From assembly GCA_964526295.1 (NCBI GenBank), contig CAZGKW010000013.1, positions 31,468-95,467 of the forward strand: a DNA stretch of 64,000 nt. Direction: 5' to 3'. The stretch comes from an uncultured Anaerolineales bacterium (GTDB taxonomy: Bacteria > Planctomycetota > Phycisphaerae > FEN-1346). The notes below the pieces were generated by a model. The model was given only the letters and a program-made list of their open reading frames with translations. It made no database searches and had not been told where the DNA came from. This document shows, one piece after another, positions 49,177 to 64,000 of this stretch (positions are counted from its first letter, which is position 1; the number at the start of each line of letters is the position of its first letter). The position numbers and the translations under genes are program-made.

Positions 49177-50079
49177 ATGGCCTATCGCTTCGCGGAGTAT
49201 CTGATGTTACTCGATGCCGTGGCGGAGGCCGGCATACCCACCCGGACCGTCAGGGAGTGGGGGCCGCCCGGCCTCTACATCCTCCACGACGTCCACTCAC
49301 AGATCGAACCGTGCCGCGCGTTTGCCCGGGAGGAGGCACGCCGGGGCGTCCGGACGAGTTTCTTCTTCCTCCCGGAGTCGCGGTACAATCGCGAGTGGTT
49401 CGGGACGAGCCAGATGTTCGATGTCCTGGCCGACCTCCGCGACGCCGGAGCGGAACTGGGCTTTCACATCGACCCGTTCGAACTGGACATCCTGTACGGC
49501 CGTTTCGACTTCCTCTACCGGCCCGTCTATCGCCGCGTCCGGGAGTGGAAGGCATACTTCCACCGGCGGGGTTTCCCGATGGCCGTTGCGAATCTGCACG
49601 GCTCGACGAAGCATCGTCGGTCGGGCATGGTGGCGTCGGACTTCTTCCGAGAGACGCAGCGGGACCGGAACGTGATCCGGGGGTGCGACCCCTCACGCTT
49701 CCATCCTCACTTTGGGCGGTATAGGCTCCGCAGGCTCCCGTTTGACCGAACCGTCGTCCTCTCAATGGTTTACGAGCAGCGGGCACGGCGGCTCACCCAC
49801 CCGGACTACTATCTCAGCGACAACAGCAAACGCATCGTGCTCCACAAGATCGATCCGGAGAGGGAACTCAGCCTCCTCCTGACGGATTTTCACGCCAACG
49901 TGGAGCACCTCCGCCGGACCGGCCGCTACGAGGAGCTCCGGCGTCACGTGGAGCTGGAAGGCGACCTCTGGTCGCTCGATGCGGACCTGATAGCCGAGCT
50001 GGTCCGCCGGATCGACGGTCGCCGCGTCCTGGCCCTGATCCATCCGCAGTGGTTCCACGGGGCCGAAGATGAAGTCTAA
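49177..50079 (+). CDS. Deacetylase-like domain protein, the third paralogue
   Basis: The blocks YILHDVHS / SFFFLPE / LGFHIDP align with the other two copies. Confidence 0.5.
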   Translation: MAYRFAEYLMLLDAVAEAGIPTRTVREWGPPGLYILHDVHSQIEPCRAFAREEARRGVRTSFFFLPESRYNREWFGTSQMFDVLADLRDAGAELGFHIDPFELDILYGRFDFLYRPVYRRVREWKAYFHRRGFPMAVANLHGSTKHRRSGMVASDFFRETQRDRNVIRGCDPSRFHPHFGRYRLRRLPFDRTVVLSMVYEQRARRLTHPDYYLSDNSKRIVLHKIDPERELSLLLTDFHANVEHLRRTGRYEELRRHVELEGDLWSLDADLIAELVRRIDGRRVLALIHPQWFHGAEDEV

Positions 50080-51226
50080 GCCTCAGAAGACGCGACGCTC
50101 TTCGCGGCGGGCCCGCCGGGTGGCACACGTCTGCGTGGTCCACGCCGCCGGCGACGCCCGCATCTTCCTGAAGGAGTGCCGGACGCTCGCCGCACAGGGG
50201 TACGACGTCCACCTGGTGGCGCCGGAGCCCGGACCCGAGGCGCCGGGCGAGGTCGCGTTTCACCCGGTCCGGCGGGCACGTCCGCGGGTCGCCAGCGTCG
50301 TGGCGAGTCTGGCGGACGCGTTCCGGCAGGTGACCTGCATCCGGCCGGACGTCGTCCACCTGCACGAGCCGGTCCTGCTGCCCCTCGGCCTGATGGCGAA
50401 GGCGGCCGGAGCGGCCACCGTGATCTACGACGCCCACGAGGACGCGCCTCGCCAGGCGCGGTCGGTCGGACGCAATCAGAACCGCCCGGTCTATGGATGG
50501 GCCCTCTCGGTCGCCTACGCCGCCCTGGTGTCCACGGCCCGTTTCTTGGACGGCTTCGTGTGCGCGACGCCGGCCATCGCCGCCCGGTTTCCGGCCGGTC
50601 GGCGGGTGGTGGTCCGCAACTTCCCGCAGCGCCGGGAGTTCGCCTCCGCGGCCCAGGTCCCCTACGCCGACCGCCCGGCCCGGGTGATCTACGCGGGCGG
50701 CATCTCACGGACCCGCGGCATCCGCGAGGTGGTCCTGGCGGCCGAGCGTCTGTCTTCTGCTCTCGGGGCCCGGTTCAGGCTGGCGGGGCGGTTCGCCCCG
50801 GCGGCGCTGCGCCGCGAAGTCGAGGCCCTGCCCGGGTGGGACCGCACGGACTTCCTGGGCTGGTTGAGCCGCGAAGACCTTGCGGCCGAGCTGGGCCGGG
50901 CACGCGTCGGCCTGCTGCCGTTCCATCCCCAGCCGAACCACGTCCGGGCCTTGCCCGCGAAGCTCTTCGAGTACATGGCGGCGGGGCTGCCGGTCGTCGC
51001 GTCGGACTTCCCGCTCTGGCGGCGCCTCGTGGAGGGGCACGGGTGCGGCGTATGTGTCGATCCGCTCGACCCGGAGGCCATCGCCGGGGCGGTCCGGCAT
51101 CTGCTGGAGCAACCGGCCGAGGCCGAAGCCATGGGCAGCCGGGGCAGCGACGCCGTTAAGCACCGATACAACTGGGACCGCGAGGCAGGGCGTCTGCTGG
51201 AGCTGTACCGCCGGCTCGGGGGGTGA
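50069..51226 (+). CDS. GT4-family (GT-B) glycosyltransferase
   Basis: It has GT4 C-terminal motifs (GLLPF..., KLFEYMAAGLPVVASD). Confidence 0.75.
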   Translation: MKSKPQKTRRSSRRARRVAHVCVVHAAGDARIFLKECRTLAAQGYDVHLVAPEPGPEAPGEVAFHPVRRARPRVASVVASLADAFRQVTCIRPDVVHLHEPVLLPLGLMAKAAGAATVIYDAHEDAPRQARSVGRNQNRPVYGWALSVAYAALVSTARFLDGFVCATPAIAARFPAGRRVVVRNFPQRREFASAAQVPYADRPARVIYAGGISRTRGIREVVLAAERLSSALGARFRLAGRFAPAALRREVEALPGWDRTDFLGWLSREDLAAELGRARVGLLPFHPQPNHVRALPAKLFEYMAAGLPVVASDFPLWRRLVEGHGCGVCVDPLDPEAIAGAVRHLLEQPAEAEAMGSRGSDAVKHRYNWDREAGRLLELYRRLGG

Positions 51227-51290
51227 GCGTCGCATGGGGCTCGCCCCCGGGGCCCGGCCGGGGTGCAGCAAGGCCGTCCGGGAGGTCGGG

Positions 51291-52232
51291 ATGCTCTCGA
51301 GAGCCAGGATGGGCCGCTTTCTTCGCCGCCTTGGCGGAGCGGCCCTCTTCGCCCTGGTCCTCGTGTTCGTCGGACGGGAGTTCGTGCGGCGCCTCGCCGA
51401 CTTCGACTGGCAGGCGGCATCGTTTGCGCCCGGCTACGCGGCCGCGGCGGCGGCGGCCCTGCTGGCGGCCAACGCCCTCCTCGGCGTGCCCTACCGACAC
51501 CTCGTGGCGCGGCTTTCCAGGCGCCTGCCGCTCGCCTTCGTCAGTGCCGTCGCATGGGTCAGCCAGACGGGCAAGTACGTACCCGGCAAGGTGCCGAGCG
51601 TGGCGACGCTGGTATGGCTGCTCTACCGACGGGGCGTGCCGCGGCGGGCGGGCCTGACGGCGGCGGTGATGGTCGCCGCCCTGTGGGTCGGGCTGGCGCT
51701 GATCATGGCGGCGCCGCTGGGCCTGTGGGAGCCGGTCCGGGAGCGGGTGCCGCCGGCGTGGCTATGGGGAGCGGCGGCAGCGGCAGCCGGCCTGGCGGGG
51801 CTGCACCCGAGGGTCCTCGGCCCGGTCGCCAGCGCCGTCCTCAGGCGGCTGGGGCGAGACCCCCTCGGGCCCCTGCCCCGGGTCCGCGACTACGCCCTTC
51901 CGGCCGCCGCCCTCGCCCTGTACCTGGGGCTGAACGGCGTCGCGCTCTGGCTCGTGGCGCGGGCCGTGACGGACGTGCCGGTCGGCCTGCTCGGGCTGTT
52001 CATCGGGGCGACGGCCCTGGCGTACGCGGCGGGGTTCCTGTCGCTGTTCGCCCCGGCCGGGATCGGCGTCCGCGAGGGCGTCCTGCTGCTCGTCCTCGGC
52101 CTCGTCCTGCCGCGGGGGGTCGACGCGGCGGCCGTGACGGCCGTCCGGCTCCTGACGATCCTGGTGGAAGTCGGGCTGGCGGGGGTCGGCCTGGCGCTGC
52201 TTCGACGGGGACGGCCTGACGCCTCGACTTGA
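51291..52232 (+). CDS. Polytopic membrane protein of the flippase-like / lysyl-PG-synthase TM-domain (UPF0104) type
   Basis: It has about 8 TM helices and is Ala/Leu-rich. A GGAGG RBS is present. This family is commonly found next to GT genes. Confidence 0.5.
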   Translation: MLSRARMGRFLRRLGGAALFALVLVFVGREFVRRLADFDWQAASFAPGYAAAAAAALLAANALLGVPYRHLVARLSRRLPLAFVSAVAWVSQTGKYVPGKVPSVATLVWLLYRRGVPRRAGLTAAVMVAALWVGLALIMAAPLGLWEPVRERVPPAWLWGAAAAAAGLAGLHPRVLGPVASAVLRRLGRDPLGPLPRVRDYALPAAALALYLGLNGVALWLVARAVTDVPVGLLGLFIGATALAYAAGFLSLFAPAGIGVREGVLLLVLGLVLPRGVDAAAVTAVRLLTILVEVGLAGVGLALLRRGRPDAST

Positions 52233-52337
52233 TGCATTTCCGCCGGGAACCCGCCCGTTCGGCGCGGTTTAACGAAACATCACAGGAGGGATTCGTCCCG
52301 CCAGGTCGTCCGCCCGAACTCGTAGGATGGCAAGACT

Positions 52338-54521
52338 ATGAAGCATGTGGCGATTGTGTGGGCCTGTACGGTCCTGGCCGCAGCTACCGCAGACGCCGAC
52401 GTCCGGATCGAGGTCGTCCCGCCCTTCGTCCGCATCGGCCCGAAGGCCGCCGCCGACATGGGCCCCGCCGCGTCCAAGGTGATCGACCTGCGTGCCCCGC
52501 GTAACGGCATCGCCTCGGCCCAGGTGGTCGTCCGCGCGGAGGAGCCGTTCAGCGGGCCCTCGGCCTCGGCGAGCGATCTCACGGGCGAGACGGGCGGCCG
52601 CATCCCGGCCGAGGCCGTCCGCCTCCGCTACGGCCGCCTCGGAGGCGCCTATGTGCCCCTGCTGGACGAGCCCGCCTCCGGCGAAGCCCTCCACATGGTG
52701 TGGCTGACGGTCCGCGTGCCGGAAGACGCCCGGCCCGGGGCATACCGCGGGAAGCTTGACCTCCGCGGACCGTTCGGCTCGCGGACCGTGCCGATCGAGC
52801 TCCGGGTCCATGCCTGGCGCGTCGGCGATCCGCACCAGTGGCGGACCTGGGTCAACCTGCTCCAGTCGCCCGAGTCGGTGGCGGCCCACTACAAGGTGCC
52901 GCGGTGGTCCGACAGGCACTTCCGCCTGATGGAGAAGTCGCTGGCCCTGATGGGGGCGGCGGGCAACGACGTGCTGGGCATCTCGGCCGTCCGCGAGACC
53001 GTCTTCGGCGACGACCCGATGCTCGTCTTCCGCCGCACCGGCGACCGATGGGTCCCTGAGTTCGACCTCGTCGAGCGATACCTCGGCCTCTACGACCGCC
53101 ACGCCGGCGAGCCGGCCTACCTGGCCCTCCACGTGTGGTCCTACGGGATGTACTACAGGGGGGAGGGCCGCGACGGCGGCAAGGAGCAGGTCCGGGCCGA
53201 GACGATCCCCGTCCTGGAGCGCCGCGGCGGCGAACTCGTGCCGGTCGAGATGCCCATCTTCGGAGGGCCCGGCACGGGGCCCGTCTGGCGGGCCGTCGTC
53301 GAGGGCCTCAAGGCCCGCTTCGAGCGGCTCGGCTGGACGCGGACGCGGCTCCTGCTGGGGACAGGCGGCGACACATGGCCCTCGCCCGAGACGGTCGGCT
53401 TCTTCCAGACGATCGCCCCGGACGTCCGGTGGCGTGTCCTGACGCACGGCTGCGGGTGCCCCAAGTGGGGACCGACCCCCCTGGAGCGGACCCAGCCGAA
53501 CGGCATGGTCGTCGGGTACCTGGAGATCGCCCGGCGCCTCACGAACCACCGCGACCGGCTGCCCGGCCGCCCCGTCGTCTGCAACAGCCGCGACCGCGTC
53601 GGCTCGGACCCCTTCGCCTACCGCGGCCTGGCGAGCGTGACGGTCTTCGGCCACGGCTACGAGGGCATCTGCTGGAAGGGCATCGACTACTGGACCTACA
53701 CGACGCCGGAGGGCACCCGCCGCAACGCCCTCAACACGTACGTCCACTTCGGCAACATGGTGGGCGGGACGCCGCGGGCCATGTGCGCCCCCGGCCCCGA
53801 CGGGGCGGTCACCACGCAGCAGTTCGAACAGCTCCGCGAGGGGCTCCAGGAGTGCGAGGCCATGCTCGCCATCCGGGCCGGCCTGGACCGCCTGTACCCC
53901 CAGCCGGTCACCCGCTGCGACGTGCTGCAACTCGTGCTCAAGGACGCCCTCGCCCGGGAGGACCGGCGGCGAAAGGCCGAGGGCGAGTTCGTCGACGTGC
54001 AGGACCTGGAACTGTCGCTCCGGTTCCGCGATGGGGAGTTGCTGCCCGAGGTCCGCTCGAAGGCGTCGACCTACAACACGGGCCGCCACACCGCACGGGC
54101 GAAGGCCCTGCCCTCCAGCGACAGCCTGCGGCTCGAAGTCGAGGTGACCATCGCCGACGACCCATGGATTGCCGGCGGCACCGGCACCTTCGTTCTGGAC
54201 CTGGAGCGGGGCAATCCGTCCTGCACGGGACGCTTCGAGGGCGCCTTCAACGGCCACGAGCGGGAGGGGCCGGTCATCGGGACGTTCGTGCCGAACGGGT
54301 ACGCCGTGCCCACAGGCGAACCCCGGCCGGGGACGGAGGCCGTCGCCCGCGCCGAGGCCGTCATCGAAACGGCCGTCGGCGTGGTGAAGACCCGCAAGCC
54401 CGATTCGCGGACGACGGAGGCGTGGCCGGAAGCGTTGGACCGACTCTACGAGGAAGCGGCGGCCATCGAGGCGAGCGCCGCGGCGACCCAGGTGAGTGCG
54501 GACCCCCGCGCGGCGAAGTGA
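52338..54521 (+). CDS. Secreted 727-aa protein of unknown function. It is a possible glycan-processing enzyme.
   Basis: It has a cleavable-type signal peptide (MKHVAIVWACTVLAAATADA). It is large and globular and is the last gene of the island. Confidence 0.4.
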   Translation: MKHVAIVWACTVLAAATADADVRIEVVPPFVRIGPKAAADMGPAASKVIDLRAPRNGIASAQVVVRAEEPFSGPSASASDLTGETGGRIPAEAVRLRYGRLGGAYVPLLDEPASGEALHMVWLTVRVPEDARPGAYRGKLDLRGPFGSRTVPIELRVHAWRVGDPHQWRTWVNLLQSPESVAAHYKVPRWSDRHFRLMEKSLALMGAAGNDVLGISAVRETVFGDDPMLVFRRTGDRWVPEFDLVERYLGLYDRHAGEPAYLALHVWSYGMYYRGEGRDGGKEQVRAETIPVLERRGGELVPVEMPIFGGPGTGPVWRAVVEGLKARFERLGWTRTRLLLGTGGDTWPSPETVGFFQTIAPDVRWRVLTHGCGCPKWGPTPLERTQPNGMVVGYLEIARRLTNHRDRLPGRPVVCNSRDRVGSDPFAYRGLASVTVFGHGYEGICWKGIDYWTYTTPEGTRRNALNTYVHFGNMVGGTPRAMCAPGPDGAVTTQQFEQLREGLQECEAMLAIRAGLDRLYPQPVTRCDVLQLVLKDALAREDRRRKAEGEFVDVQDLELSLRFRDGELLPEVRSKASTYNTGRHTARAKALPSSDSLRLEVEVTIADDPWIAGGTGTFVLDLERGNPSCTGRFEGAFNGHEREGPVIGTFVPNGYAVPTGEPRPGTEAVARAEAVIETAVGVVKTRKPDSRTTEAWPEALDRLYEEAAAIEASAAATQVSADPRAAK

Positions 54522-54584: not shown

Positions 54585-55829
54585 TCATTCCTCCTCGGGG
54601 TAGCCATACTGGTCCGGCGGGGTCCCATGGGACTCAAGGACCCGAGGCCGGTCAAACCCTCGGCTTGAGGGGTCCACGCGGACCAGCCGCACATTGAAGG
54701 ACCAGCAATCTCCGAAGTCGTAGAGAAACTCCATCGCCTCGCCGTCGGCCAGCGGCAGATCGCCCAGTCGCACGTCCGCCGTGGAGGGTGACTCTTCACA
54801 GAACGGATGAAGGAACCTGGTGGATCCGCCGAAGCGGTCCGCGCACGTGAACGAATAGAGGTGGTCCAGGTCGAAGTTGAAGGCGTGCACGATGCCGACG
54901 GCCAGGTCATCCAGCGTCCGGCCGGCCGATAGCCCGATCCGCCGTCGCGCACGGCCCAGCGAGACGCCAAAGACCCACACCCCTTTCCGGAAAGCGGGCG
55001 CCGAAATCTCCAGGTCCTTCTGCCACGCGGGTACGAACGGCCCGAACACCTCCCGGAGACCCCCGGATGTCGTCGATTTCGGTTCGCCCTCGCACAAGAT
55101 ACGCAGCAAGTGGTCAGGGTCGCGCAGCGGCCGGAAGATCGCCCGGCCCCACGCCGTGCGGCGGATGGCCTTCGGCTGCCAGGTCCGGCCTTCCACCGGG
55201 GGCCCCTGGTCCACGGCCAACAGGCCGAACATGTCCATCAGCATAAGTTCCCAAGCGGTGGCCCATGCGCCCGCCACGTACCGTCCGCCTTGCACCTCGT
55301 CGTCGATTTGCAGGCCGTCCTTCGGAAGGGCCTCCCAGAGCATCAAGGCCGAAGTGAGACAGCCAAAAACCGGGGTTCGGCGCTCGCCCACGACCTCGGG
55401 CCGGCCGTTCAGCAGCCAAGCCTCCAGGAGCGCGAAGTACCGCTCGGTCGCATTGAGGCCCTGCCACAACTCGTGGACCTCTTCGTCCACAACCAGGCAG
55501 CCCTTTGTCCCGCCGGCCTTGGCCTGGATCAAGCCGCTGCACCGGCCCACGAGATACAGGCCGTGAAGGTTCGGATAGGACTGCTGTTGTGGGCGTTTCA
55601 AGCGGACCGCCAAAGGGCGGCCCATCCGCGAGTTGAGCTCCACCAGGCACGAGCCCGGCAACAAGCCCCGACGGGCGGTGCTCCGAACCCCTGCGGGCCC
55701 GATGAAGTCCAGCAGGACCCCGAAGTCGTGCAGGATAGGCCCGGGGTGCTCGTCGTCGATGGTCTGCTCGCGGAACGTACGAACCGCGTCCAGCGAGATC
55801 ACGGCCTGATTTCGACTTCTGGCCGCCAC
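54585..55829 (-). CDS. PRiA4b-ORF3-like domain protein
   Basis: The C-terminal FLYDFGDCWSFNV block resembles the YDFGDxWxH signature of PF07929-type proteins. The GTG start was chosen for a strong GGAAGGAGG RBS. Confidence 0.45.
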   Translation of the reverse strand: MAARSRNQAVISLDAVRTFREQTIDDEHPGPILHDFGVLLDFIGPAGVRSTARRGLLPGSCLVELNSRMGRPLAVRLKRPQQQSYPNLHGLYLVGRCSGLIQAKAGGTKGCLVVDEEVHELWQGLNATERYFALLEAWLLNGRPEVVGERRTPVFGCLTSALMLWEALPKDGLQIDDEVQGGRYVAGAWATAWELMLMDMFGLLAVDQGPPVEGRTWQPKAIRRTAWGRAIFRPLRDPDHLLRILCEGEPKSTTSGGLREVFGPFVPAWQKDLEISAPAFRKGVWVFGVSLGRARRRIGLSAGRTLDDLAVGIVHAFNFDLDHLYSFTCADRFGGSTRFLHPFCEESPSTADVRLGDLPLADGEAMEFLYDFGDCWSFNVRLVRVDPSSRGFDRPRVLESHGTPPDQYGYPEEE

Positions 55830-55894
55830 CGCGGGCCTCCTTCCGAAATACCTCCCGCAACGTCGCTCCGACAAGCGCCCTGACAGACGGCCGC

Positions 55895-56518
55895 TCAGCC
55901 CCCAAGGCCGGCGCGGGCGTGGGCCCGAAGGGCCTGGACGCGTTGCCGCCATTGGCGGTCGGCGGCCTCCCACCTCTTCACCTTCCCGCCGGCCCGGGCG
56001 GCCTTGATCCCGCCGATGATCAGGTTCAGCAAGCCGCCCAGGATACAGACGCCCCCCACGAGGAGCAGCGGCTCCAGTTCCGGATCGGCCTGCCCTGCGC
56101 CGAGGGCCACCACGCCGAGCGGCAGCGCCACCACCCCCACGATGACCCACCGGACACCCTTGCGGCGGGCCCGCCGCAGGCGAGGCAGGGCGACGCGCAT
56201 CCGGCCCTGGAACGTGGCGTACTGCTCGCGGGCCTCATCGAGGGCCAGCCGGGCCTGTTCCCGGGCGGCCATCGCCTGGTGACGCTGCATCAGGCCGTCC
56301 GTCGTGTCCCGGACGGCCGTCATGTGGTCCTGGATCTCGGTGACCCGGCCGTGGACCTCATCGATGGCCCGCTTGAGGACCGTCAGCTCGATCGAGCCGT
56401 CGGCGGCCCGCGTCACGCGGAAGACCGACCGGCAGCTCGAGCACCGGACGGCGTCGGACGTGTCCTCGACGTGCAGGTTGTCGCCGCAGTTCCTGCACTC
56501 GAAGGTCTGGAGTTCCAT
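55895..56518 (-). CDS. Zn-ribbon / coiled-coil / single-TM protein
   Basis: It has an N-terminal CxxC...CxxC ribbon (CRNCGDN...CSSCRS), a central coiled coil and a C-terminal TM helix. It starts 5 nt after the upstream gene's stop. Confidence 0.5.
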   Translation of the reverse strand: MELQTFECRNCGDNLHVEDTSDAVRCSSCRSVFRVTRAADGSIELTVLKRAIDEVHGRVTEIQDHMTAVRDTTDGLMQRHQAMAAREQARLALDEAREQYATFQGRMRVALPRLRRARRKGVRWVIVGVVALPLGVVALGAGQADPELEPLLLVGGVCILGGLLNLIIGGIKAARAGGKVKRWEAADRQWRQRVQALRAHARAGLGG

Positions 56519-56523
56519 GCGGC

Positions 56524-57294
56524 CTACTTTCGGAGCCCCTGGGCGAGTGCTGTGACCTTCCGGCTGATCTCGTCGGCCCGACGGGCGGCCCCGGCGGCCC
56601 GCTCCTCGCCGGGCGACGCCGGGTCGATGCGGCCCGCCTCCTCCGAGAGCTGCTGCACCTCGGCCGCCAGCATGCCGTACTCGGCCGACCGCCCGACCGT
56701 GCCTGCGTGCGGCAGCGAGTAGGTGAGCTTCTCGCGGAGGGCCTTCAGGCGCGCGGCCAGGTCGGCCGTCGCCTCGGATGAGGCCAGACGGTCCTCCTGG
56801 GTGCGGATCGCCGCGGCCAGGGCCGGCGGCGCCGGGACGCCCTCCGGCACGGGCTCGCCGCCCGCCGCCGCCCCCGCACGGGCCAGGTAGAGGAACACGA
56901 AGATGCCCAGCGCCGCGGCGGCCAGCAGCACCTGCGTCGCCAAGTGCAGCCGGTCGTACAGCTCGCTGCTCTCTCCGGCCGCGTGGACCAGCATCAGGGC
57001 GAAGCTGATGATCGCATAGATGATGACGACGACGTTGACGGCCGGGAGGACGCCGCCCGTCGCGCCGGACGGCATGGACCGGCGGATGGCGTAGAAGGCA
57101 TAGGCCCCCAGGCCGCCCCAGACCACCAGCGCGAGCACCTCGGTCCAGAGCATGTTCCGCCAGAACTGGGGCGTGCGGTCGTCCGTCTCGACCAGCAGCA
57201 GGGCGAGGACCACGATCGCCGCCGCCGTGATGATGTACCCCAGAACCGACGCGACCCACACGCCGTGGATGGGCCTGGCCATGGCGGTCTCCAT
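56524..57294 (-). CDS. 4-TM membrane protein with a C-terminal coiled-coil
   Basis: Its ATG overlaps the SPFH gene stop by 1 nt (TGATG). Four hydrophobic helices are predicted. Confidence 0.5.
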   Translation of the reverse strand: METAMARPIHGVWVASVLGYIITAAAIVVLALLLVETDDRTPQFWRNMLWTEVLALVVWGGLGAYAFYAIRRSMPSGATGGVLPAVNVVVIIYAIISFALMLVHAAGESSELYDRLHLATQVLLAAAALGIFVFLYLARAGAAAGGEPVPEGVPAPPALAAAIRTQEDRLASSEATADLAARLKALREKLTYSLPHAGTVGRSAEYGMLAAEVQQLSEEAGRIDPASPGEERAAGAARRADEISRKVTALAQGLRK

Positions 57295-58493
57295 CACAGG
57301 TCCTTCAGGATCTCGGCCTTCTTGGCGTCGTAATCGTCCTGCGTGATGAGCCCGCCGTCGAGGAGGGCCTTGAGCTGCTGGAGCTTGGCCACGGGGTCGG
57401 CCTGGCCGGCCGGGGCGGCGCCCCCGCCGGGCGCGGCGGGCGGTCCAGGCGGAGGCGTCTCGGGGGCTTGGGGCGCCTGCGCCCCGGTCGCCGACTCGGG
57501 CGGGGGTTCGGCCGAGGGTGGGGGCTCGCCGGACGGGGGCGGAGTCCTGCCCTTCGGCCCTTCGCCCCCCTGGCCTTCCTGCCCCTGTTGGCCCGGCCGG
57601 CCGGGCTGGACGTTCAGGTTGCTCCCCATCTGCTGACCGACCGGCATGCCGGCCCCCAGGCCGACGCCTAGGCCCAGCCCCGCCGAAAGGAGCTGCCCGG
57701 CCCCGCCGCCCTCGTTCGAGGCGGCCTGGTCGAGGGTGTCGAAGGTCCGCATCGTCGTGTAGGCGGGGCCGACGTTCGCGCCGGAGATCTGCTCGATCTC
57801 CATCCGCCGACGGAGCACCTCCTGGAACTGCTCCTTCTCCTCCTGCGGGATGCTGATGCTGACGACGTTGAAGTTGATGACTTCGATGCCGAACCGGCCG
57901 AACTCTTCCCGCATGTCGCTCTCGGTGAACTGCGACAGGTCGTTGAGGCGGGCGGCGATGTCGAAGATCGACGCCCCCCGCTCGACGAAGTACTTCGCCA
58001 GGGCATCGGAGAACCGCTGAACGATCAGGCCGATGAAGTAGTCGAAGATCTTGCCGCTGTCGGCCGACGGGAGGGTCCCCACGATCTGCGTGATGAACGC
58101 CCGGGAGTCCTCGATCCTGAGGCCCCACGTCCCCCGGGCCCGGACGCTGATGGGGAAGTTGTACCGCGGGTCCACCAGGTTCACCGGCGAGGGCGTGCCC
58201 CACCGGAGGTCGCGCTTCACGTGACGGTTGACGAACCAGACCTCGGCCGTAAACGGCGTCTGCCCGCCGAACGGCCGATTGATGAGCCGGCGCAGCAGGG
58301 GCAGGTTGCCCGTGGCCAGCGAGTGGGTGCCCGGCCCGAACAAGTCGAGGGCCTTCCCGCCCTTGACGAGCAGGGCCTCCTGGGCCTGGTTGACGATGAG
58401 CTGGGTCCCGAGGCGAAGCTCTTCCCCGGGGAACTTGAAGGCCAGCTCCTCGTCGCTGGCAGCATCGTGCTTGACGCGATCGATCAGTGCCAT
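57294..58493 (-). CDS. SPFH/band-7 (stomatin/flotillin-like) protein with a Pro/Gly-rich linker and a C-terminal SHOCT domain
   Basis: It has an SPFH core followed by a low-complexity PPP-rich linker. The terminal LKALLDGGLITQDDYDAKKAEIL is a SHOCT-like motif. Confidence 0.75.
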   Translation of the reverse strand: MALIDRVKHDAASDEELAFKFPGEELRLGTQLIVNQAQEALLVKGGKALDLFGPGTHSLATGNLPLLRRLINRPFGGQTPFTAEVWFVNRHVKRDLRWGTPSPVNLVDPRYNFPISVRARGTWGLRIEDSRAFITQIVGTLPSADSGKIFDYFIGLIVQRFSDALAKYFVERGASIFDIAARLNDLSQFTESDMREEFGRFGIEVINFNVVSISIPQEEKEQFQEVLRRRMEIEQISGANVGPAYTTMRTFDTLDQAASNEGGGAGQLLSAGLGLGVGLGAGMPVGQQMGSNLNVQPGRPGQQGQEGQGGEGPKGRTPPPSGEPPPSAEPPPESATGAQAPQAPETPPPGPPAAPGGGAAPAGQADPVAKLQQLKALLDGGLITQDDYDAKKAEILKDL

Positions 58494-58699
58494 GACGTGG
58501 TCCCCTCAGATCACTTGCCGCTCCCGCGAGGACGATACGGCAGCAGGCCACGGCGGGACACCCCTCGGCGTACGCCTCGAAGGGCCGCCTCTGGGTACCA
58601 TAGGCCCCCGCCCGGCGGGGCGTCAACCCAAAAGGGCCTCGGCATCTCCCGCAGGCCGGTCGCGGGCGGCCCGTCCGCCCAAAATGGGGCGGAAACTGC

Positions 58700-58728
58700 T
58701 TACACCGGCCGCCCAGGGATGCTAGAAT
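58700..58728 (+). promoter_or_regulatory. Candidate sigma70-type promoter with an extended -10 (TGcTAGAAT) for the Ubl operon
   Basis: TGCTAGAAT lies ~125 nt upstream of the Ubl ATG in a 350-bp divergent intergenic region. The -35 element is weak (TTACAC). Confidence 0.25.
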
Positions 58729-58851
58729 TGCCGCGGGTGCATTTGAGGGGCCGGCGCGCCTGGTCGTCACCGCCCACGGCGACGACCAGATGGGCAATAC
58801 GTGCGAATTCAGACACCGGCTGGTGCGTATGAGCAGGTGAGGCAGGGGTCG

Positions 58852-59145
58852 ATGGCCGACGAGGACGAGAACATCAACGTCGAGGTCTGGGACGCCACCG
58901 GAAACAAGCGGATCACCGCCAGCCTCCCGCGAAACGCACCGGTCAACCGCATCCTGGTCCTGCTGGTGGACCGGATGAACCTGCCGCGGCACAGCCCCGA
59001 CGGCCAGTTGATGAGCTACAAGTTCCACCACAAGGCGAGCGGGCGGCAACTCCTGGACGAGGAGACTCTCGAGGACGCCGGCGTCCACGAAGGCGACGTC
59101 CTCAGAATCCAGCCGGAGATCACGGCGGGGGGCCGCGAGCCATAA
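58852..59145 (+). CDS. Ubiquitin-like beta-grasp protein (pro-form). A di-glycine is followed by a 3-residue tail (…ITAGG-REP).
   Basis: The GRQLLDEETLEDAGVHEGDVLRIQPE block parallels ubiquitin's [26 protein letters not shown]. The core ends in GG+REP. The ATG at 58852 has a GTGAGG RBS. Confidence 0.6.
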   Translation: MADEDENINVEVWDATGNKRITASLPRNAPVNRILVLLVDRMNLPRHSPDGQLMSYKFHHKASGRQLLDEETLEDAGVHEGDVLRIQPEITAGGREP

Positions 59146-59292: not shown

Positions 59293-60480
59293 GTGAGTGA
59301 GACCCCCGCTATCCGGATCGACGGCGCCGAGCCGGAGGCGCGGTTCAGCCGCTTCGAGCTCATCTCCTGGTGGGACCAGAGGCGCCTGCGGGAGGCCAAG
59401 GTCCTCGTCATCGGGGCCGGGGCCCTGGGCAACGAGCTCGTTAAGAACGCCGCCCTCCTGGGCATCGGGAACCTCCTCGTCGCCGACATGGACCGCATCG
59501 AGGGGTCGAACCTGTCGCGGTCGGTCCTGTTTCGGGCCGAGGACGAGGGCCGGCCCAAGGCGGAGGTGGCCTGCGAATCGGCCCGGGCGATCTACCCGGA
59601 CGTCGCCGCCCACCCCTTCGTCGGCAACGTGGTCCACGACCTCGGACTCGGGCCCTACCTCTGGGCCGACGTGGTCCTCGGGGGGCTTGACAACCGTGAG
59701 GCCCGCGTGGCGGTCAACCGCGGGGCCGCCCTGGCCGGGAAGACGTGGATCGACGGGGCCATCGAGGTCTTGAGCGGCCTGGTGCGGGTCTTCGACCCGG
59801 CCGGCGGGCCGTGCTACGAGTGCACCATGAGCGAGGTGGACTGGAAGATCCTCCAGGGCCGCCGGTCCTGCGCCCTGCTGACGCGGGAGGAGATGGAGAC
59901 GGGCAAGGTGCCCACCACGCCGACGACCGGCAGCGTCGTCGCCGGCCTCCAGGTCCAGGAGGCAGTGAAGCTCCTGCACGGCCTCGACGTGCGGACGGGC
60001 GAAGGCGTGCGGCTCGACGGCATCACGGGCGGATTCGAGCCCGTCCGCTACCCCCGGAAGGCCGATTGCGCGGGGCACGAACGGCTGGAGCGCATCGAGC
60101 CGCTGGACGCCGGCGCCGCCGACGTGACCGTCGGGGAGCTGCGGGCGAGGGCCCAGGCCGACCTCGGGCCGGCAGCGACGCTCGAGCTGTCGCGCGACAT
60201 TATCGCGCGGCTCGTGTGCCCCCAGTGCGGCGCGGCCGAGGATCGGTTCGCCTCGCTGGGCCGGGTGACCGTCTCGGAGGCGGCGTGCCCGGCGTGCGGC
60301 CAGGTCCGCATTCCCGAGACGCTCTTCGAGCTGGAGGCCGAGGAAGGCCTGGCCGATAGGACGTTCGCAGCGCTCGGCGTCCCGCCGATGGACGTCGTTA
60401 TCGCCCGGCAGGGCGACGACGCGGTCGGGTACCTGTTCGACGGCGACGCGGAGGCCGTGCTGGGCCCGCTGGCCCGGTGA
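59293..60480 (+). CDS. ThiF/MoeB/E1-like adenylyltransferase with Zn-binding CxxC pairs
   Basis: It has a Rossmann GxGxxG (VLVIGAGALGNELVKN) and the CYEC...C / CPQC...CPAC motifs. Confidence 0.7.
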   Translation: MSETPAIRIDGAEPEARFSRFELISWWDQRRLREAKVLVIGAGALGNELVKNAALLGIGNLLVADMDRIEGSNLSRSVLFRAEDEGRPKAEVACESARAIYPDVAAHPFVGNVVHDLGLGPYLWADVVLGGLDNREARVAVNRGAALAGKTWIDGAIEVLSGLVRVFDPAGGPCYECTMSEVDWKILQGRRSCALLTREEMETGKVPTTPTTGSVVAGLQVQEAVKLLHGLDVRTGEGVRLDGITGGFEPVRYPRKADCAGHERLERIEPLDAGAADVTVGELRARAQADLGPAATLELSRDIIARLVCPQCGAAEDRFASLGRVTVSEAACPACGQVRIPETLFELEAEEGLADRTFAALGVPPMDVVIARQGDDAVGYLFDGDAEAVLGPLAR

Positions 60481-60557: not shown

Positions 60558-61874
60558 GTGAGTGACGCCGACCAGCGCGGGGGCGGTTCGTCCGAGGCGG
60601 GCGGTCGGGCCGGCAGCGGACCGGACTGCCGGCGGATCGACCCGTCGGGGCTCCGGGAGGCGGCGTTTCCCGCCCCGGAGTCGCCGGAGTATCGGGTCCA
60701 CTTCAGCGAAGACGCCTACGAGCAGATGAAGGCCCACGCCGCCACCACCGACGAGGTGGAGCTGTGCGGCGTCCTGGTGGGCGAGGTCTGCAAGGACGAG
60801 CAGGGACCGTACCTGCGGATCACGGGGGCCATCGAGGGCCAGGGGGCCAAAAACTACGGGGCCCAGGTCACGTTCACCCACGAGACCTGGAGCCACCTGC
60901 ACGAGGTCAAGGACGCCCGCTACCCGGACACGCGGATCGTGGGCTGGTATCACACGCACCCGGGGTTCGGCGTGTTCCTGTCGAGCATGGACACGTTCAT
61001 CCAGGAGAACTTCTTCAGCGAGCCGTACCAGGTGGCGGTGGTCATCGAGACGCGCCGCGGGGTGGAAGGCTGCTTCGTGTGGCAGGACGGCCGGTGCGTG
61101 CCGCTGCGGCGGTACTGGGTCGGCGACCGGGAGGTCTCGCTGACGCCGGGCGAGGCGGAGGCGTTCGAGGGGTCGCCGGACCGGGCCAAGGCCGAGGACG
61201 TCCCGGTGGAGAACGAGGACGAGGCGGGGCCCCTGCTGCCTCCCTCGATGCTGACGTACGCCCTGGTCGTGCTGGTCTTCGTGGGCGGGGTGATGATCGG
61301 GGCGTTCTTCCTGGGCACGAAGGGGAACGGCGCGGCCGAGCGGGCCGCCGAGAACGAGGTCTATTCGATCCTCGAGTCGGCCGCCCTGGGCACCCTGGCC
61401 GCCGAGGACCTGGAGCGGGTGCGGAGCGAGCTCGAGGCCGTCCGGCGGAATCTGGACGAAGGCAAGGCCGACCTGGCCGTAGAACAGGTGGAGCGGTTGA
61501 CGGCGGAGGTAGACTCCCTCAAGGGGGACTACGCCGAGCGGCGGTCGGTCCGGCGGGCCCAGTTGGCCCATCTGGCCGGCAAGCGCCGAAGCCTCAGCGA
61601 CCGCCTCGAGGTGGTCTGGCGGAACCAGGCGGAGCTGCAACGGGTCGTCGCCGACCTTTATCTGCTGCGGCTCGTCGACGCCCTGCAAAGTCTGGGCGGC
61701 ACGGACCCGTCGAAGTGGAGCGAGGCCGAGCGCCTGGCCGTCAAGCAGATGCTGGACCGGACGCTCCAGCTCGACCCCGGCAACAAGGCGACCATCGAGC
61801 GGGCCGTGCCCGGCCTGGTCGAGCACTTCTATCCGCCCAAGGAGGCGGCCAAGAAGGACAAGCCGGACGATTAG
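60558..61874 (+). CDS. JAB/MPN (JAMM) metallopeptidase with a TM helix and a C-terminal coiled-coil
   Basis: It has the E..H.H..(7)S..D JAMM motif (GWYHTHPGFGVFLSSMD). A hydrophobic helix LTYALVVLVFVGGVMIGAFFLG follows. A GAGGAGG RBS sits before the GTG. Confidence 0.7.
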   Translation: MSDADQRGGGSSEAGGRAGSGPDCRRIDPSGLREAAFPAPESPEYRVHFSEDAYEQMKAHAATTDEVELCGVLVGEVCKDEQGPYLRITGAIEGQGAKNYGAQVTFTHETWSHLHEVKDARYPDTRIVGWYHTHPGFGVFLSSMDTFIQENFFSEPYQVAVVIETRRGVEGCFVWQDGRCVPLRRYWVGDREVSLTPGEAEAFEGSPDRAKAEDVPVENEDEAGPLLPPSMLTYALVVLVFVGGVMIGAFFLGTKGNGAAERAAENEVYSILESAALGTLAAEDLERVRSELEAVRRNLDEGKADLAVEQVERLTAEVDSLKGDYAERRSVRRAQLAHLAGKRRSLSDRLEVVWRNQAELQRVVADLYLLRLVDALQSLGGTDPSKWSEAERLAVKQMLDRTLQLDPGNKATIERAVPGLVEHFYPPKEAAKKDKPDD

Positions 61875-61952: not shown

Positions 61953-63014
61953 ATGGCGGACATCCGCATCACCCGAAACGAGCTGAACGATCCGGCCATC
62001 GACGAGGTCATCGGCCTGGAGCGGCAGTTCCGTCAGGCGACCGGCGAGGCCGTCGAGGACATCCCCACCCCCTTCTACTACAACCCGCTCTTCTACTACT
62101 CGCTGGCGGGCCTGGCGGGGGGCCTGATCGCCTGGGGCACCCACGAGCCGTTCTACTCCGACCGCGAGTCCATGACCCCCCTCCCGTTCATCAACGACTT
62201 TCTCCTGTTCGGGCCGGTAGCGGCGTTCATCGGGCTGTTCATCGGCGTTTCCTACGGCCTGTCGAACCGAAACGTCAAGCAGGCGCTCTACTGCGGCGTC
62301 GTGGGGCTGGGCGTCGGGCTGGGGGCGACGGTGGTGACGACCTTCGCCGCCAACTGGCTCTACAACATCACCGCGACCATGGCGGTGACGATGTCCGGGG
62401 CACGGCACGACGGCATCTACCAGCCGCGCGGGGTGGCCTTCTTCGTTCAGACGTGCGGCCGGGGGATCGCCTGGGCCATCGTGGCGACGGGGGGCGGCGT
62501 GGGGCTGGGCATCAGCCTGAAGAGCCCCCACCGGATCCTGAACGGCCTGGCGGGGGCCCTCGTCGGGGGGCTGCTGGGCGGCCTCCTGTTCGATCCCATC
62601 GACCGGTTCATCTACGGCTGGGGGGAGGAGGCCGCCACGAGCCGCGGCATCGGCATCGCCGCCATCGGCCTCCTGGTCGGTTTCTTCGTCGGCCTGTTCG
62701 AAAACATCTCGAAGGAGGCTTGGTTCCAGATGCTCCGCGGGCCGCTGGCCGGAAAGCAGTTCATCCTGTTCAAGAGCCCGATGGTCGTCGGCTCGGCCCC
62801 GAAGTGCGACATCTATATCTTCAAGGACCCGGTCATCGAGCCCTGCCACGCCTCCATCACGAAGACGGGGACCAAGTACCTCCTGAGGGACGAAGGGACC
62901 GAGGCCGGCACGTTCGTCAACGGCCGGCGCATCGACCGGTACATTCTCCAGCCCGACGACTTCGTCACCATCGGAGAGGCGGTCCTGAAGTACCACGAGC
63001 GGCACCAGTCGTAG
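61953..63014 (+). CDS. Polytopic membrane protein with a C-terminal FHA domain
   Basis: It has about 6 TM helices. The C-terminal FHA signature is YIFKDPVIEPCHASI...GTFVNGRRI...DDFVTIGE. Confidence 0.65.
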   Translation: MADIRITRNELNDPAIDEVIGLERQFRQATGEAVEDIPTPFYYNPLFYYSLAGLAGGLIAWGTHEPFYSDRESMTPLPFINDFLLFGPVAAFIGLFIGVSYGLSNRNVKQALYCGVVGLGVGLGATVVTTFAANWLYNITATMAVTMSGARHDGIYQPRGVAFFVQTCGRGIAWAIVATGGGVGLGISLKSPHRILNGLAGALVGGLLGGLLFDPIDRFIYGWGEEAATSRGIGIAAIGLLVGFFVGLFENISKEAWFQMLRGPLAGKQFILFKSPMVVGSAPKCDIYIFKDPVIEPCHASITKTGTKYLLRDEGTEAGTFVNGRRIDRYILQPDDFVTIGEAVLKYHERHQS

Positions 63015-63032: not shown

Positions 63033-63950
63033 ATGGCCGAACCGGGCGAGAAGCGGCGGATGACGTGCCCGCACTGCCGGGTCACGGTCGAGTTCCCGGC
63101 CCGGCTGGCCGGGCACGAGCGTCCGTGCCCGAAGTGTCTGCGGGCCATCACCCTGGAGGCCCGCCCGGCGACGGGGGCGACGCCGGCCCCGGGTCCCTCG
63201 CCGGCCGCGGCCGTCCCGCCGCCGGCGGCGGGTCCGCTTTCGGAGGGCCCCGGCGCCGGTCCCCCGCCCTCGCCGGAGAAGGAGCGGCACGCCTTCACGC
63301 CGGTCCGGCCGCCGGGCAAGGAGGGGCCGGCGTTCCTGGAGCGGATGCGGGCCAACCGGGTCCTGGCCGGCCGGATCTGCCCCGGCTGCGGACAGGAGAT
63401 CGACCTGGGCGACGACGTGTTCAACTGCCCGAGCTGCAACGTGACGATGCACTTCGCCTGCCGCGAGCAGCACGGCGGCTGCGCGAACCCGGACTGCCCG
63501 GCCTATCAGGCGGCCGCCCCTGCGGCGGCTGCGGCCCCTGCGGGGGGGGCCGCGGCCCCCCCCGCAGGGGCCGACCTCGTGCCGTGCCGGTTCTGCGGCG
63601 AACCGATCACCCGGCAGGCCCGCCGGTGCCTCTATTGCGGCGAGTATCAGCAGCGCGTCCACCCGCGGTTCCGCGCCCGCCAGGATCCCCTGTCGCAGAA
63701 GGCCACCACGGCGATGGTGCTCGGGATCCTGGGGCTGGTCTTCTCGACCGTGACGTGCTGCCCGCCGCTGGGCATCGGCCTCGGGACCGGCGCCATCGTC
63801 CTCGGGGGCAAGGCCAAGGCGTCGACGACCTCGGCCGGCAAGGCCAACGCCGGCTTCATCATGGGGATCATCGCGGTGGTCCTGGGCGGGCTGGGCCTCG
63901 TGTGGCTCCTGTTCATGATCGGGGTCAATTTCCAGGCGAACGGGTACTAG
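63033..63950 (+). CDS. Multi-zinc-ribbon protein with a Pro/Ala-rich linker and a C-terminal double-TM (DUF4190-like) anchor
   Basis: It has four CxxC pairs (CPHC/CPKC; CPGC/CPSC; ...CRFC/CLYC). The C-terminal hydrophobic helices include a CCPP segment. Confidence 0.55.
   Translation: MAEPGEKRRMTCPHCRVTVEFPARLAGHERPCPKCLRAITLEARPATGATPAPGPSPAAAVPPPAAGPLSEGPGAGPPPSPEKERHAFTPVRPPGKEGPAFLERMRANRVLAGRICPGCGQEIDLGDDVFNCPSCNVTMHFACREQHGGCANPDCPAYQAAAPAAAAAPAGGAAAPPAGADLVPCRFCGEPITRQARRCLYCGEYQQRVHPRFRARQDPLSQKATTAMVLGILGLVFSTVTCCPPLGIGLGTGAIVLGGKAKASTTSAGKANAGFIMGIIAVVLGGLGLVWLLFMIGVNFQANGY
63532..63573. repeat. Perfect ~42-bp palindrome containing G8 and C8 homopolymer tracts, inside the Zn-ribbon gene
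   Basis: The left arm is cggcccctgcgggggggg, the central spacer is ccgcgg, and the right arm is ccccccccgcaggggccg. The arms are exact reverse complements. Confidence 0.7.
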
Positions 63951-64000
63951 TGTAGTGTATCAAGCAGATTGCACATTATTCAGTACGGCCCGTGCCCGTT

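Follow-up and report, generated by a model that had tools for sequence, protein, structure and literature searches.

Soluble SPFH proteins need to be recruited to the membrane, and to our knowledge only one case of such recruitment has been studied, that of SamGHI in Bacillus subtilis. In this system the cytosolic Band-7 protein YdjI (SamI) requires two proteins encoded in its own operon, YdjG, which carries zinc ribbons and a transmembrane (TM) segment, and YdjH, in order to reach the membrane (PMC8581546; bioRxiv 10.64898/2026.02.06.704340), and it likewise depends on them for forming membrane foci and for recruiting PspA (PMC8581546; PMC9239133; PMC11237479; bioRxiv 10.64898/2026.02.06.704340). 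A related group of proteins joins the Band_7_1 domain (PF13421) to a SHOCT domain; Band_7_1 was reported in 2013 as the commonest fusion partner of SHOCT (PMC3581485), and a later survey (PMC11237479) predicts that SHOCT-like domains anchor proteins to the inner leaflet and describes proteins with band-7, two TM segments and SHOCT that replace the CesT-PspA dyad in polyamine operons. Here we describe four consecutive minus-strand genes in a 64,000-nucleotide stretch of contig CAZGKW010000013.1 from an uncultured bacterium (the whole stretch is called the window, and positions are given within it unless a locus is named), which encode a Band_7_1-SHOCT protein (gene 1, SPFH), a membrane protein with four TM segments (gene 2, TM4), a protein with a zinc ribbon and a coiled coil (gene 3, ZnCC) and a PRiA4-like protein (gene 4), and which stand back to back with a module built around a ubiquitin-like (Ubl) protein. 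We show that the SPFH-SHOCT protein, TM4 and a Zn-ribbon protein form a conserved, tightly coupled triad, encountered in sampled loci whose GC content ranges from 28 to 72%. Both the triad and the TM4 partner family appear to be new, being absent from Pfam and from the literature searched.

The metagenome scan was seeded with TM4 rather than with SPFH, and it recovered 19 loci with a GC content of 28-61%, 16 of which include DNA upstream of TM4. In all 16 an SPFH-SHOCT gene lies directly upstream of TM4 on the same strand, and the gaps between the two genes in the TM4-seeded loci run from -4 to +91 nt, with most at 18 nt or below. When SPFH was used as the seed, a TM4-family gene was found immediately downstream of it in four of the five distinct contexts (L002, L033/034, L035 and L036/037), with hidden Markov model (HMM) E values of 1e-32 to 1e-71; the exception is a Sedimentisphaerales locus (L003-005), in which a Zn-ribbon protein follows SPFH instead of TM4. 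The third gene recurs as well: in 13 loci (L002, L010, L011, L012, L015, L016, L018, L019, L020, L023, L025, L026 and L028) TM4 is directly followed, across gaps of -4 to +21 nt, by a gene for a CxxC...CxxC protein, and in three others (L014, L033 and L035) such a gene stands one or two genes from TM4. The triad is conserved, we conclude, because SPFH stands upstream of TM4 in each of the TM4-seeded loci where it could be seen and because a zinc-ribbon protein follows TM4 in most loci. In its commonest form the third gene encodes a zinc ribbon and a TPR-like domain within a soluble protein of about 200 aa (ZnR-TPR), and the gene that usually comes next specifies a conserved protein, about 250 aa long, in which a two-TM hairpin is combined with a globular domain. 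This canonical fourth gene represents a conserved, unannotated family in which the hairpin is N-terminal and for which Pfam gave no match; copies lie at L010 2978-3748, L012 1755-2510, L015 6824-7579, L019 3118-3912, L020 2956-3678 and L023 1453-2058.

The operon in the window is a divergent variant of this triad, distinguished by a membrane-anchored Zn-ribbon protein and by a PRiA4-like gene in fourth position. Its first two genes are orthologous to those of the canonical operon (L010-L026), with tblastn identities of 38-62% for SPFH and 25-37% for TM4; the tight coupling is common to both, as is a gene 3 that opens with a CxxC...CxxC zinc ribbon, whereas the conserved fourth gene is missing from the window, where the PRiA4-like gene takes its position. 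Reading the minus strand confirmed the initial annotation in its account of four genes separated by a TGATG overlap and by spacers of 5 and 65 nt (Table 1). At the overlap a single base is common to the TGA of SPFH and the ATG of TM4, the spacer between genes 2 and 3 reads gccgc, and the GTG of gene 4, beyond the longer spacer, is preceded 6 nt upstream by the Shine-Dalgarno sequence GGAAGGAGG (GGAGG). All four genes can be taken as coding, because GC content at third codon positions (GC3) is 0.93 in SPFH, 0.95 in TM4, 0.92 in ZnCC and 0.82 in the PRiA4-like gene. The same annotation had the four genes translationally coupled in one operon, and here only part of the claim survives. Coupling applies to genes 1-3, with their overlap and 5-nt spacer, and these three genes, which make up a functional operon, also recur together in many unrelated metagenomic lineages, at gaps of -4 to about +20 nt; the 65-nt spacer and separate Shine-Dalgarno sequence of gene 4 indicate co-directional linkage instead of translational coupling, and conserved membership of the operon does not extend to the PRiA4-like gene. 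The domain assignments of the four proteins were correct (Band_7_1, SHOCT and PRiA4_ORF3 by Pfam, the membrane segments by hydropathy and the zinc ribbon by its CxxC motifs), and the divergent region previously put at about 350 bp does exist, with 358 bp between the ATG of SPFH and that of Ubl. No intrinsic terminator was found in 54.0-59.5 kb.

Table 1. Coordinates of the SPFH operon, the divergent intergenic region and the Ubl module in the window
Feature	Position	Strand	Length	Remark
Gene 1, SPFH (Band_7_1 + SHOCT)	58493 (ATG) to 57294 (TGA)	-	399 aa	
Gene 2, TM4	57294 (ATG) to 56524 (TAG)	-	256 aa	
Gene 3, ZnCC	56518 (ATG) to 55895 (TGA)	-	207 aa	
Gene 4, PRiA4-like	55829 (GTG) to 54585 (TGA)	-	414 aa	GTG is the most plausible start
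Divergent intergenic region	58494..58851	.		between SPFH operon and Ubl module
YukD-like Ubl	58852-59145	+		Pfam
ThiF E1	59293-60480	+		Pfam
JAB + TM + coiled coil	60558-61874	+		Pfam
Multi-TM + FHA	61953-63014	+		Pfam
Prok-RING_1 + TM	63033-63950	+		Pfam

Gene 1 matches Band_7_1 over residues 23-225 (E = 8e-47, 160 bits against a cutoff of 24) and SHOCT (PF09851) in its C-terminal bihelical domain (E = 6.8e-8, 32.5 bits against a cutoff of 27). The hydropathy scan detected no TM segment in the protein, which is a cytosolic SPFH protein, and an SPFH protein that lacks a TM segment must reach the membrane via something else. Its homologues are numerous (2254 matches, typically of 335-345 aa) and remain 60-66% identical even across phyla. 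Their alignment contains invariant glycines (GLGLG.G...G) and, between the SPFH core and SHOCT, the segment NEGGGAG..L..GLGLGVGLGAG.P.G, which resembles a glycine zipper and occupies about residues 262-290. The window protein additionally carries a low-complexity insert of about 60 aa, rich in Pro, Gly, Gln and Glu, at about residues 295-360 (window 57600-57410). The insert separates the glycine-zipper motif from SHOCT; it is missing from nearly all homologues and is taken to be specific to this lineage. In the AlphaFold2 (AF2) model, the SPFH core has a predicted local distance difference test (pLDDT) score of 85-96 and the SHOCT helices, at residues 367-379 and 385-398, reach 95, while neither the glycine segment nor the linker is ordered and the only helices that follow the core are those at 217-259 (about 45 helical residues). 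The best Foldseek matches of the core are human stomatin, HflK/C, prohibitin, QmcA and flotillin, with E values of 1e-9 to 1e-5 and a probability of 1.00 for stomatin, HflK/C, prohibitin and flotillin, and gene 1 is predicted from this model to have the SPFH alpha/beta fold. By sequence alone, no related PDB chain was detectable. A search of PLSDB plasmids with SPFH gave nothing closer than distant Band_7_1 proteins, whose identity does not exceed 37%; the matches listed in a scan of genome contigs with SPFH alone were all to SHOCT domains, in Firmicutes.

TM4 has four TM segments in the hydropathy scan, and in its AF2 model (pLDDT 92.7) the four TM helices lead into a four-helix bundle, which, judging from the distribution of charges, should face the cytoplasm. 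The protein matched nothing in Pfam (at E < 0.01), NCBIfam, PADLOC or PHROG, and a word-indexed homology search returned only the query itself; exhaustive HMMER searching, in contrast, gathered 247 clusters (50% identity), most of which are full-length and about 250 aa long. TM4 is a real protein family, because these clusters are accompanied by a confident model and by conserved polar and aromatic residues within the membrane. The conserved residues of the TM region are R40, F44, W50, W59, P84, Y93, S97 and Q121, and the four-helix bundle carries the C-terminal motif LKxLREKIxYSLP. The 37-sequence alignment of the family was too divergent to yield patterns for the scan, for which a subset of 10 sequences was used. 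Comparison with the PDB, both by fold (Foldseek with the TM4 model) and by profile (with the TM4 alignment), gave only designed helical bundles and noise from G-protein-coupled receptors. A short variant of 155 aa, comprising the 4-TM domain alone, is paired with a 335-aa SPFH protein in L002 and L035.

ZnCC begins with a zinc ribbon (CxxC...CxxC, residues 8-11 and 26-29), continues as a coiled coil and ends in a two-TM hairpin with TM segments at 120 and 146. It matched no Pfam family, and none above threshold elsewhere in the profile searches; hhalign aligned it to the canonical ZnR-TPR family over residues 4-56 only, that is, over the zinc ribbon, with a probability of 30%. ZnCC occupies the position of the triad's Zn-ribbon gene and carries a different C-terminal module. 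We also considered ZnCC as a homologue of PspA and rejected this, as the match is a 15-bit coiled-coil similarity (cutoff 336). The matches of ZnCC in PADLOC-DB v2 are weak coiled-coil matches to LmuB and JetA only, with E values of 4e-4 or weaker. Gene 4 matches PRiA4_ORF3 (PF07929, MM3350-like) at residues 295-406 (E = 5.4e-14, 52.7 bits against a cutoff of 26.6), so that only its C-terminal third is covered and an N-terminal region of about 290 aa lies outside the match; PDB entry 2I1S matches it weakly (E = 0.009). A homologue of gene 4 occurs in none of the 37 other loci, and it is probably a lineage-specific neighbour or a late addition and not a member of the core. Horizontal acquisition was considered for gene 4, whose GC3 of 0.82 is low for the operon; this value falls within the range of 0.76-0.96 seen in the window, the evidence is weak, and the idea was not retained.

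We propose that genes 1-3 are one instance of a self-contained and widely distributed triad which, by analogy, probably acts as a sub-membrane scaffold or sensor of envelope integrity. TM4 would reside in the inner membrane, its two termini facing the cell interior, and its cytoplasmic four-helix bundle would serve as a docking site for the SPFH protein, making TM4 a dedicated membrane receptor. The SPFH protein, as other SPFH proteins do, would oligomerise and so form a ring or a patch at the inner leaflet, where the glycine-zipper segment and SHOCT may help to keep it. The Zn-ribbon protein would be a third subunit or an adaptor, in the window version anchored by its own TM hairpin, and the tight or overlapping stop-start junctions would hold the subunits in fixed proportion. 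The assembly as a whole might then work as a scaffold or a sensor for envelope integrity by the same logic by which SamG and SamH recruit SamI (YdjI).

Several observations weigh against this proposal. Its mechanism is drawn from synteny, topology and analogy; the context samples are small, with many short contigs, and the nearest relatives sampled are only 66% identical for SPFH, about 40% for TM4 and 50% for JAB. The polar residues conserved inside the TM4 bundle (S97, Q121 and Y93) suggest that this protein does more than anchor. The window departs from the canonical operon in its third gene, which has a coiled coil and a TM hairpin and not a TPR-like soluble domain, and a tblastn search of the window with the canonical fourth gene gave no match. 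The analogy with pspA-ydjGHI (samGHI) is likewise incomplete: YdjH is a TPM-domain protein, whereas TM4 combines four TM segments with a helical bundle and has no TPM match; in YdjG a pair of zinc ribbons is joined to an NTF2-like domain and a TM segment (PMC11237479), while in ZnCC a lone zinc ribbon is followed by a coiled coil and a TM hairpin, with no globular domain in the middle; and the window operon includes no pspA, with no PspA match above threshold in its four genes.

Other functions for the triad can be envisaged. Mobile-element-like surroundings are found at the two loci with a short TM4, L002 (1-16000), with an integrase, AAA_25 and helix-turn-helix (HTH) genes upstream and a 2xZnR-TM protein and a vWA-PP2C-kinase triad downstream, and L035 (2900-21000), with an integrase, a DDE transposase, Fic, an ORC/Cdc6-like protein, DUF87 and SSB. 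Together with the IS110 transposase beside the operon in L033 and the polar residues conserved within the TM4 bundle, these would fit an anti-phage or anti-mobile-element (abortive-infection) system, in which TM4 would be a membrane-disrupting effector restrained by the SPFH scaffold. We regard such a role as improbable: PADLOC and PHROG gave no match for TM4 or, apart from SHOCT, for SPFH, and ZnCC had none in PHROG and only the weak coiled-coil matches in PADLOC; TM4 relatives are absent from the viral contigs and PLSDB plasmids searched; the high identity of SPFH across phyla is atypical of fast-evolving defence genes; and the neighbours in the window (a glycosyltransferase, an LPG_synthase_TM protein and a GH123-like enzyme) are envelope housekeeping genes. 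The structural matches of gene 1 to stomatin, HflK/C, prohibitin and QmcA-YbbJ would also be expected if the SPFH protein were a classical scaffold linked to a protease or to NfeD, as in HflK/C-FtsH or stomatin-NfeD/QmcA-YbbJ, with its partner encoded elsewhere and with TM4 and ZnCC as substrates or bystanders. Against this, which we hold to be very unlikely, stand the lack of a protease or NfeD domain in the operon according to Pfam, the missing N-terminal TM segment of SPFH, the mere 45 or so helical residues that follow its core where cage formers have a long coiled-coil wall, and the strict SPFH-TM4 synteny, which points to TM4 as the dedicated partner. The initial annotation had remarked on the absence of NfeD, and indeed none of the four proteins has an NfeD match in Pfam; that absence is uninformative here, because NfeD is the partner of stomatin- and flotillin-type SPFH proteins and not of the Band_7_1 type.

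The extent of the functional unit, at either end of the triad, can also be drawn differently. The PRiA4_ORF3-like protein could be a true fourth subunit in this lineage, replacing the canonical fourth gene, given that it sits at that gene's position, on the same strand, 65 nt downstream of ZnCC and with no terminator-like site between. We think this unlikely, as no other SPFH or TM4 locus contains gene 4, which lacks translational coupling, is preceded by a Shine-Dalgarno sequence of its own, has a GC3 below that of genes 1-3 and shows no similarity to the canonical fourth gene. At the other end, it had been suggested that the SPFH operon and the Ubl module constitute one membrane-associated stress or defence island, which would be co-regulated from the 358-bp region between them and in which SPFH would organise, or be the target of, a membrane-anchored Ubl machinery. 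The two operons do stand back to back, each strand has a promoter-like site, and a direct repeat lies between these sites, which are 70 bp apart; the JAB, FHA and RING proteins of the module are membrane-anchored, as TM4 and ZnCC are; and E1/JAB-type systems offer a precedent, in that an E1/E2 enzyme of an antiphage signalling system based on cyclic oligonucleotides (CBASS) conjugates its cyclase to PspA, and YdjI co-purifies (PMC11153139). The adjacency is not conserved, however. SPFH, TM4, ZnCC and PRiA4 occur in none of the six JAB-seeded Ubl modules, in flanks of up to 10 kb, and Ubl, E1, JAB, FHA and RING in none of the 19 TM4-seeded loci or the five distinct SPFH-seeded contexts. Each module is found complete elsewhere without the other, and PADLOC has no match for SPFH, TM4 or PRiA4 and only the weak coiled-coil matches for ZnCC. 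The upstream neighbours of the SPFH operon at other loci are mutually unrelated (a beta-helix protein, a thiamine pyrophosphate (TPP) enzyme, an IS110 transposase, transporters). Hence, in the co-occurrence check on the sampled loci, many of them short contigs and none from a close relative of the window genome, the two operons were never together and the SPFH operon kept unrelated company, the outcome named beforehand as refuting a joint island, and we abandon that suggestion, which now seems most unlikely. The adjacency of SPFH and Ubl appears to be a single occurrence, nothing points to a system common to the two, and we judge the Ubl/E1/JAB/FHA/RING module to be a separate system that adjoins the triad by chance in the window genome. 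It is highly improbable that, in this lineage, the membrane-anchored Ubl machinery and SPFH/TM4/ZnCC make up one functional unit with a shared divergent control region, in which an SPFH platform would concentrate the Ubl enzymes or be itself Ubl-modified; if true, bacteria would have an equivalent of ubiquitin signalling that is arranged on microdomains of the membrane.

The divergent region itself contains sigma-70-like promoter sites at 58626-58597 on the minus strand and 58699-58728 on the plus strand (two found against 0.1 expected). Between the divergent promoter-like sites lies a 23-nt direct repeat (58614-58636 and 58665-58687; GGCGG..CGTC..CCCAAAA.GG), whose copies are 78% identical and 51 nt apart and which may be an operator. 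A near-perfect hairpin at 58760-58789, with 13-nt arms that are 92% complementary and a 4-nt loop, falls in the presumed 5' leader of Ubl, between promoter-like site and ATG; Rfam contains no element that matches in 54.0-59.5 kb. Beyond the PRiA4 side of the operon, at 49177-54521, lie genes for a GT4 glycosyltransferase and for a membrane protein resembling LPG_synthase_TM, together with one for a GH123-like glycosidase, the last transcribed convergently with the PRiA4-like gene; these flanking genes are envelope-related housekeeping, and no hallmarks of mobile elements were seen among them.

The Ubl module has relatives of its own, with full-length JAB homologues, 40-50% identical, being common in Planctomycetota and related phyla. 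The six JAB-seeded modules were examined with sequenced flanks of up to 10 kb on either side, one locus being judged from its Pfam listing. Two of the six contain a YukD-E1-JAB core, and in these the minimal set stands directly downstream of a gene for an alpha-2-macroglobulin of about 2050 aa (L029 2040-8192, L030 2294-8455). The other four (L031, L032, L038 and one JGI contig) agree with the window module in gene order and have the longer arrangement YukD-E1-JAB-FHA-(x)-RING-RING/trypsin-UQ_con E2-DUF2752, and in L031 (11337-16439), L032 and L038 the module extends past FHA and RING into a RING-trypsin fusion, UQ_con (E2) and DUF2752. The corresponding RING-trypsin, E2 and DUF2752 genes may lie beyond the end of the window, which at 64000 comes just after the first RING gene. 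The YukD-like Ubl is 78-92% identical across the window (58852-59145), L029 (8479-8772), L030, L031, L032 and L038, compared with 60-69% for E1 and 42-50% for JAB, so that its conservation is on a par with that of a ubiquitin. It ends in ...QPEITAGG plus a short variable tail (REP in the window), a tail that implies processing which would expose Gly-Gly.

How does the triad compare with the systems already described? The Band_7_1-SHOCT proteins (PF13421 + PF09851; the 'band-7 + 2TM + SHOCT' of Ravi et al.) are identical to gene 1 in domain architecture, and the window protein differs from those of the polyamine operons in that its operon has no polyamine genes and in its additional insert of about 60 aa. 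The accessible portions of the reports on these proteins (PMC3581485, PMC11237479) do not describe TM4 or Zn-ribbon partners. The architecture of gene 1 has long been known, and the TM4 family and the triad appear to be the new part. With TM4 the Band_7_1-SHOCT proteins, a very common group, gain a partner family that keeps strict synteny with them and is accompanied by a recurrent Zn-ribbon third subunit. With the SPFH complexes that form cages or rings (stomatin, HflK/C-FtsH, prohibitin, flotillin, QmcA-YbbJ), gene 1 shares the predicted SPFH fold, and oligomerisation on the membrane is to be expected of it; unlike them, it lacks an N-terminal membrane anchor, has a short helical region in place of a long coiled-coil wall, has no NfeD or protease partner in its operon and has no relative in the PDB that its sequence detects.

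The resemblance to samGHI goes further. In both, a cytosolic SPFH protein of the Band_7_1 type, devoid of TM segments, shares one operon with two membrane proteins, one of which has N-terminal zinc ribbon(s) and a TM anchor. The 575-aa protein that L002 encodes in the homologous position, which combines a globular domain and TM segments with two zinc ribbons, looks closer than ZnCC to YdjG as described. The two systems differ in that YdjI ends in a zinc ribbon and the window SPFH in SHOCT, and their gene order is reversed, with SPFH first in the window and last in B. subtilis. We regard samGHI as the closest analogue, the resemblance being one of likely function between partners that are not homologous. 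The triad is not a surprising arrangement, and we do not claim a new kind of system; it is a lead for SPFH biology. With its 247 TM4 clusters and the range of GC content over which it was sampled, it offers a second model of SPFH recruitment, phylogenetically much broader than SamGHI.

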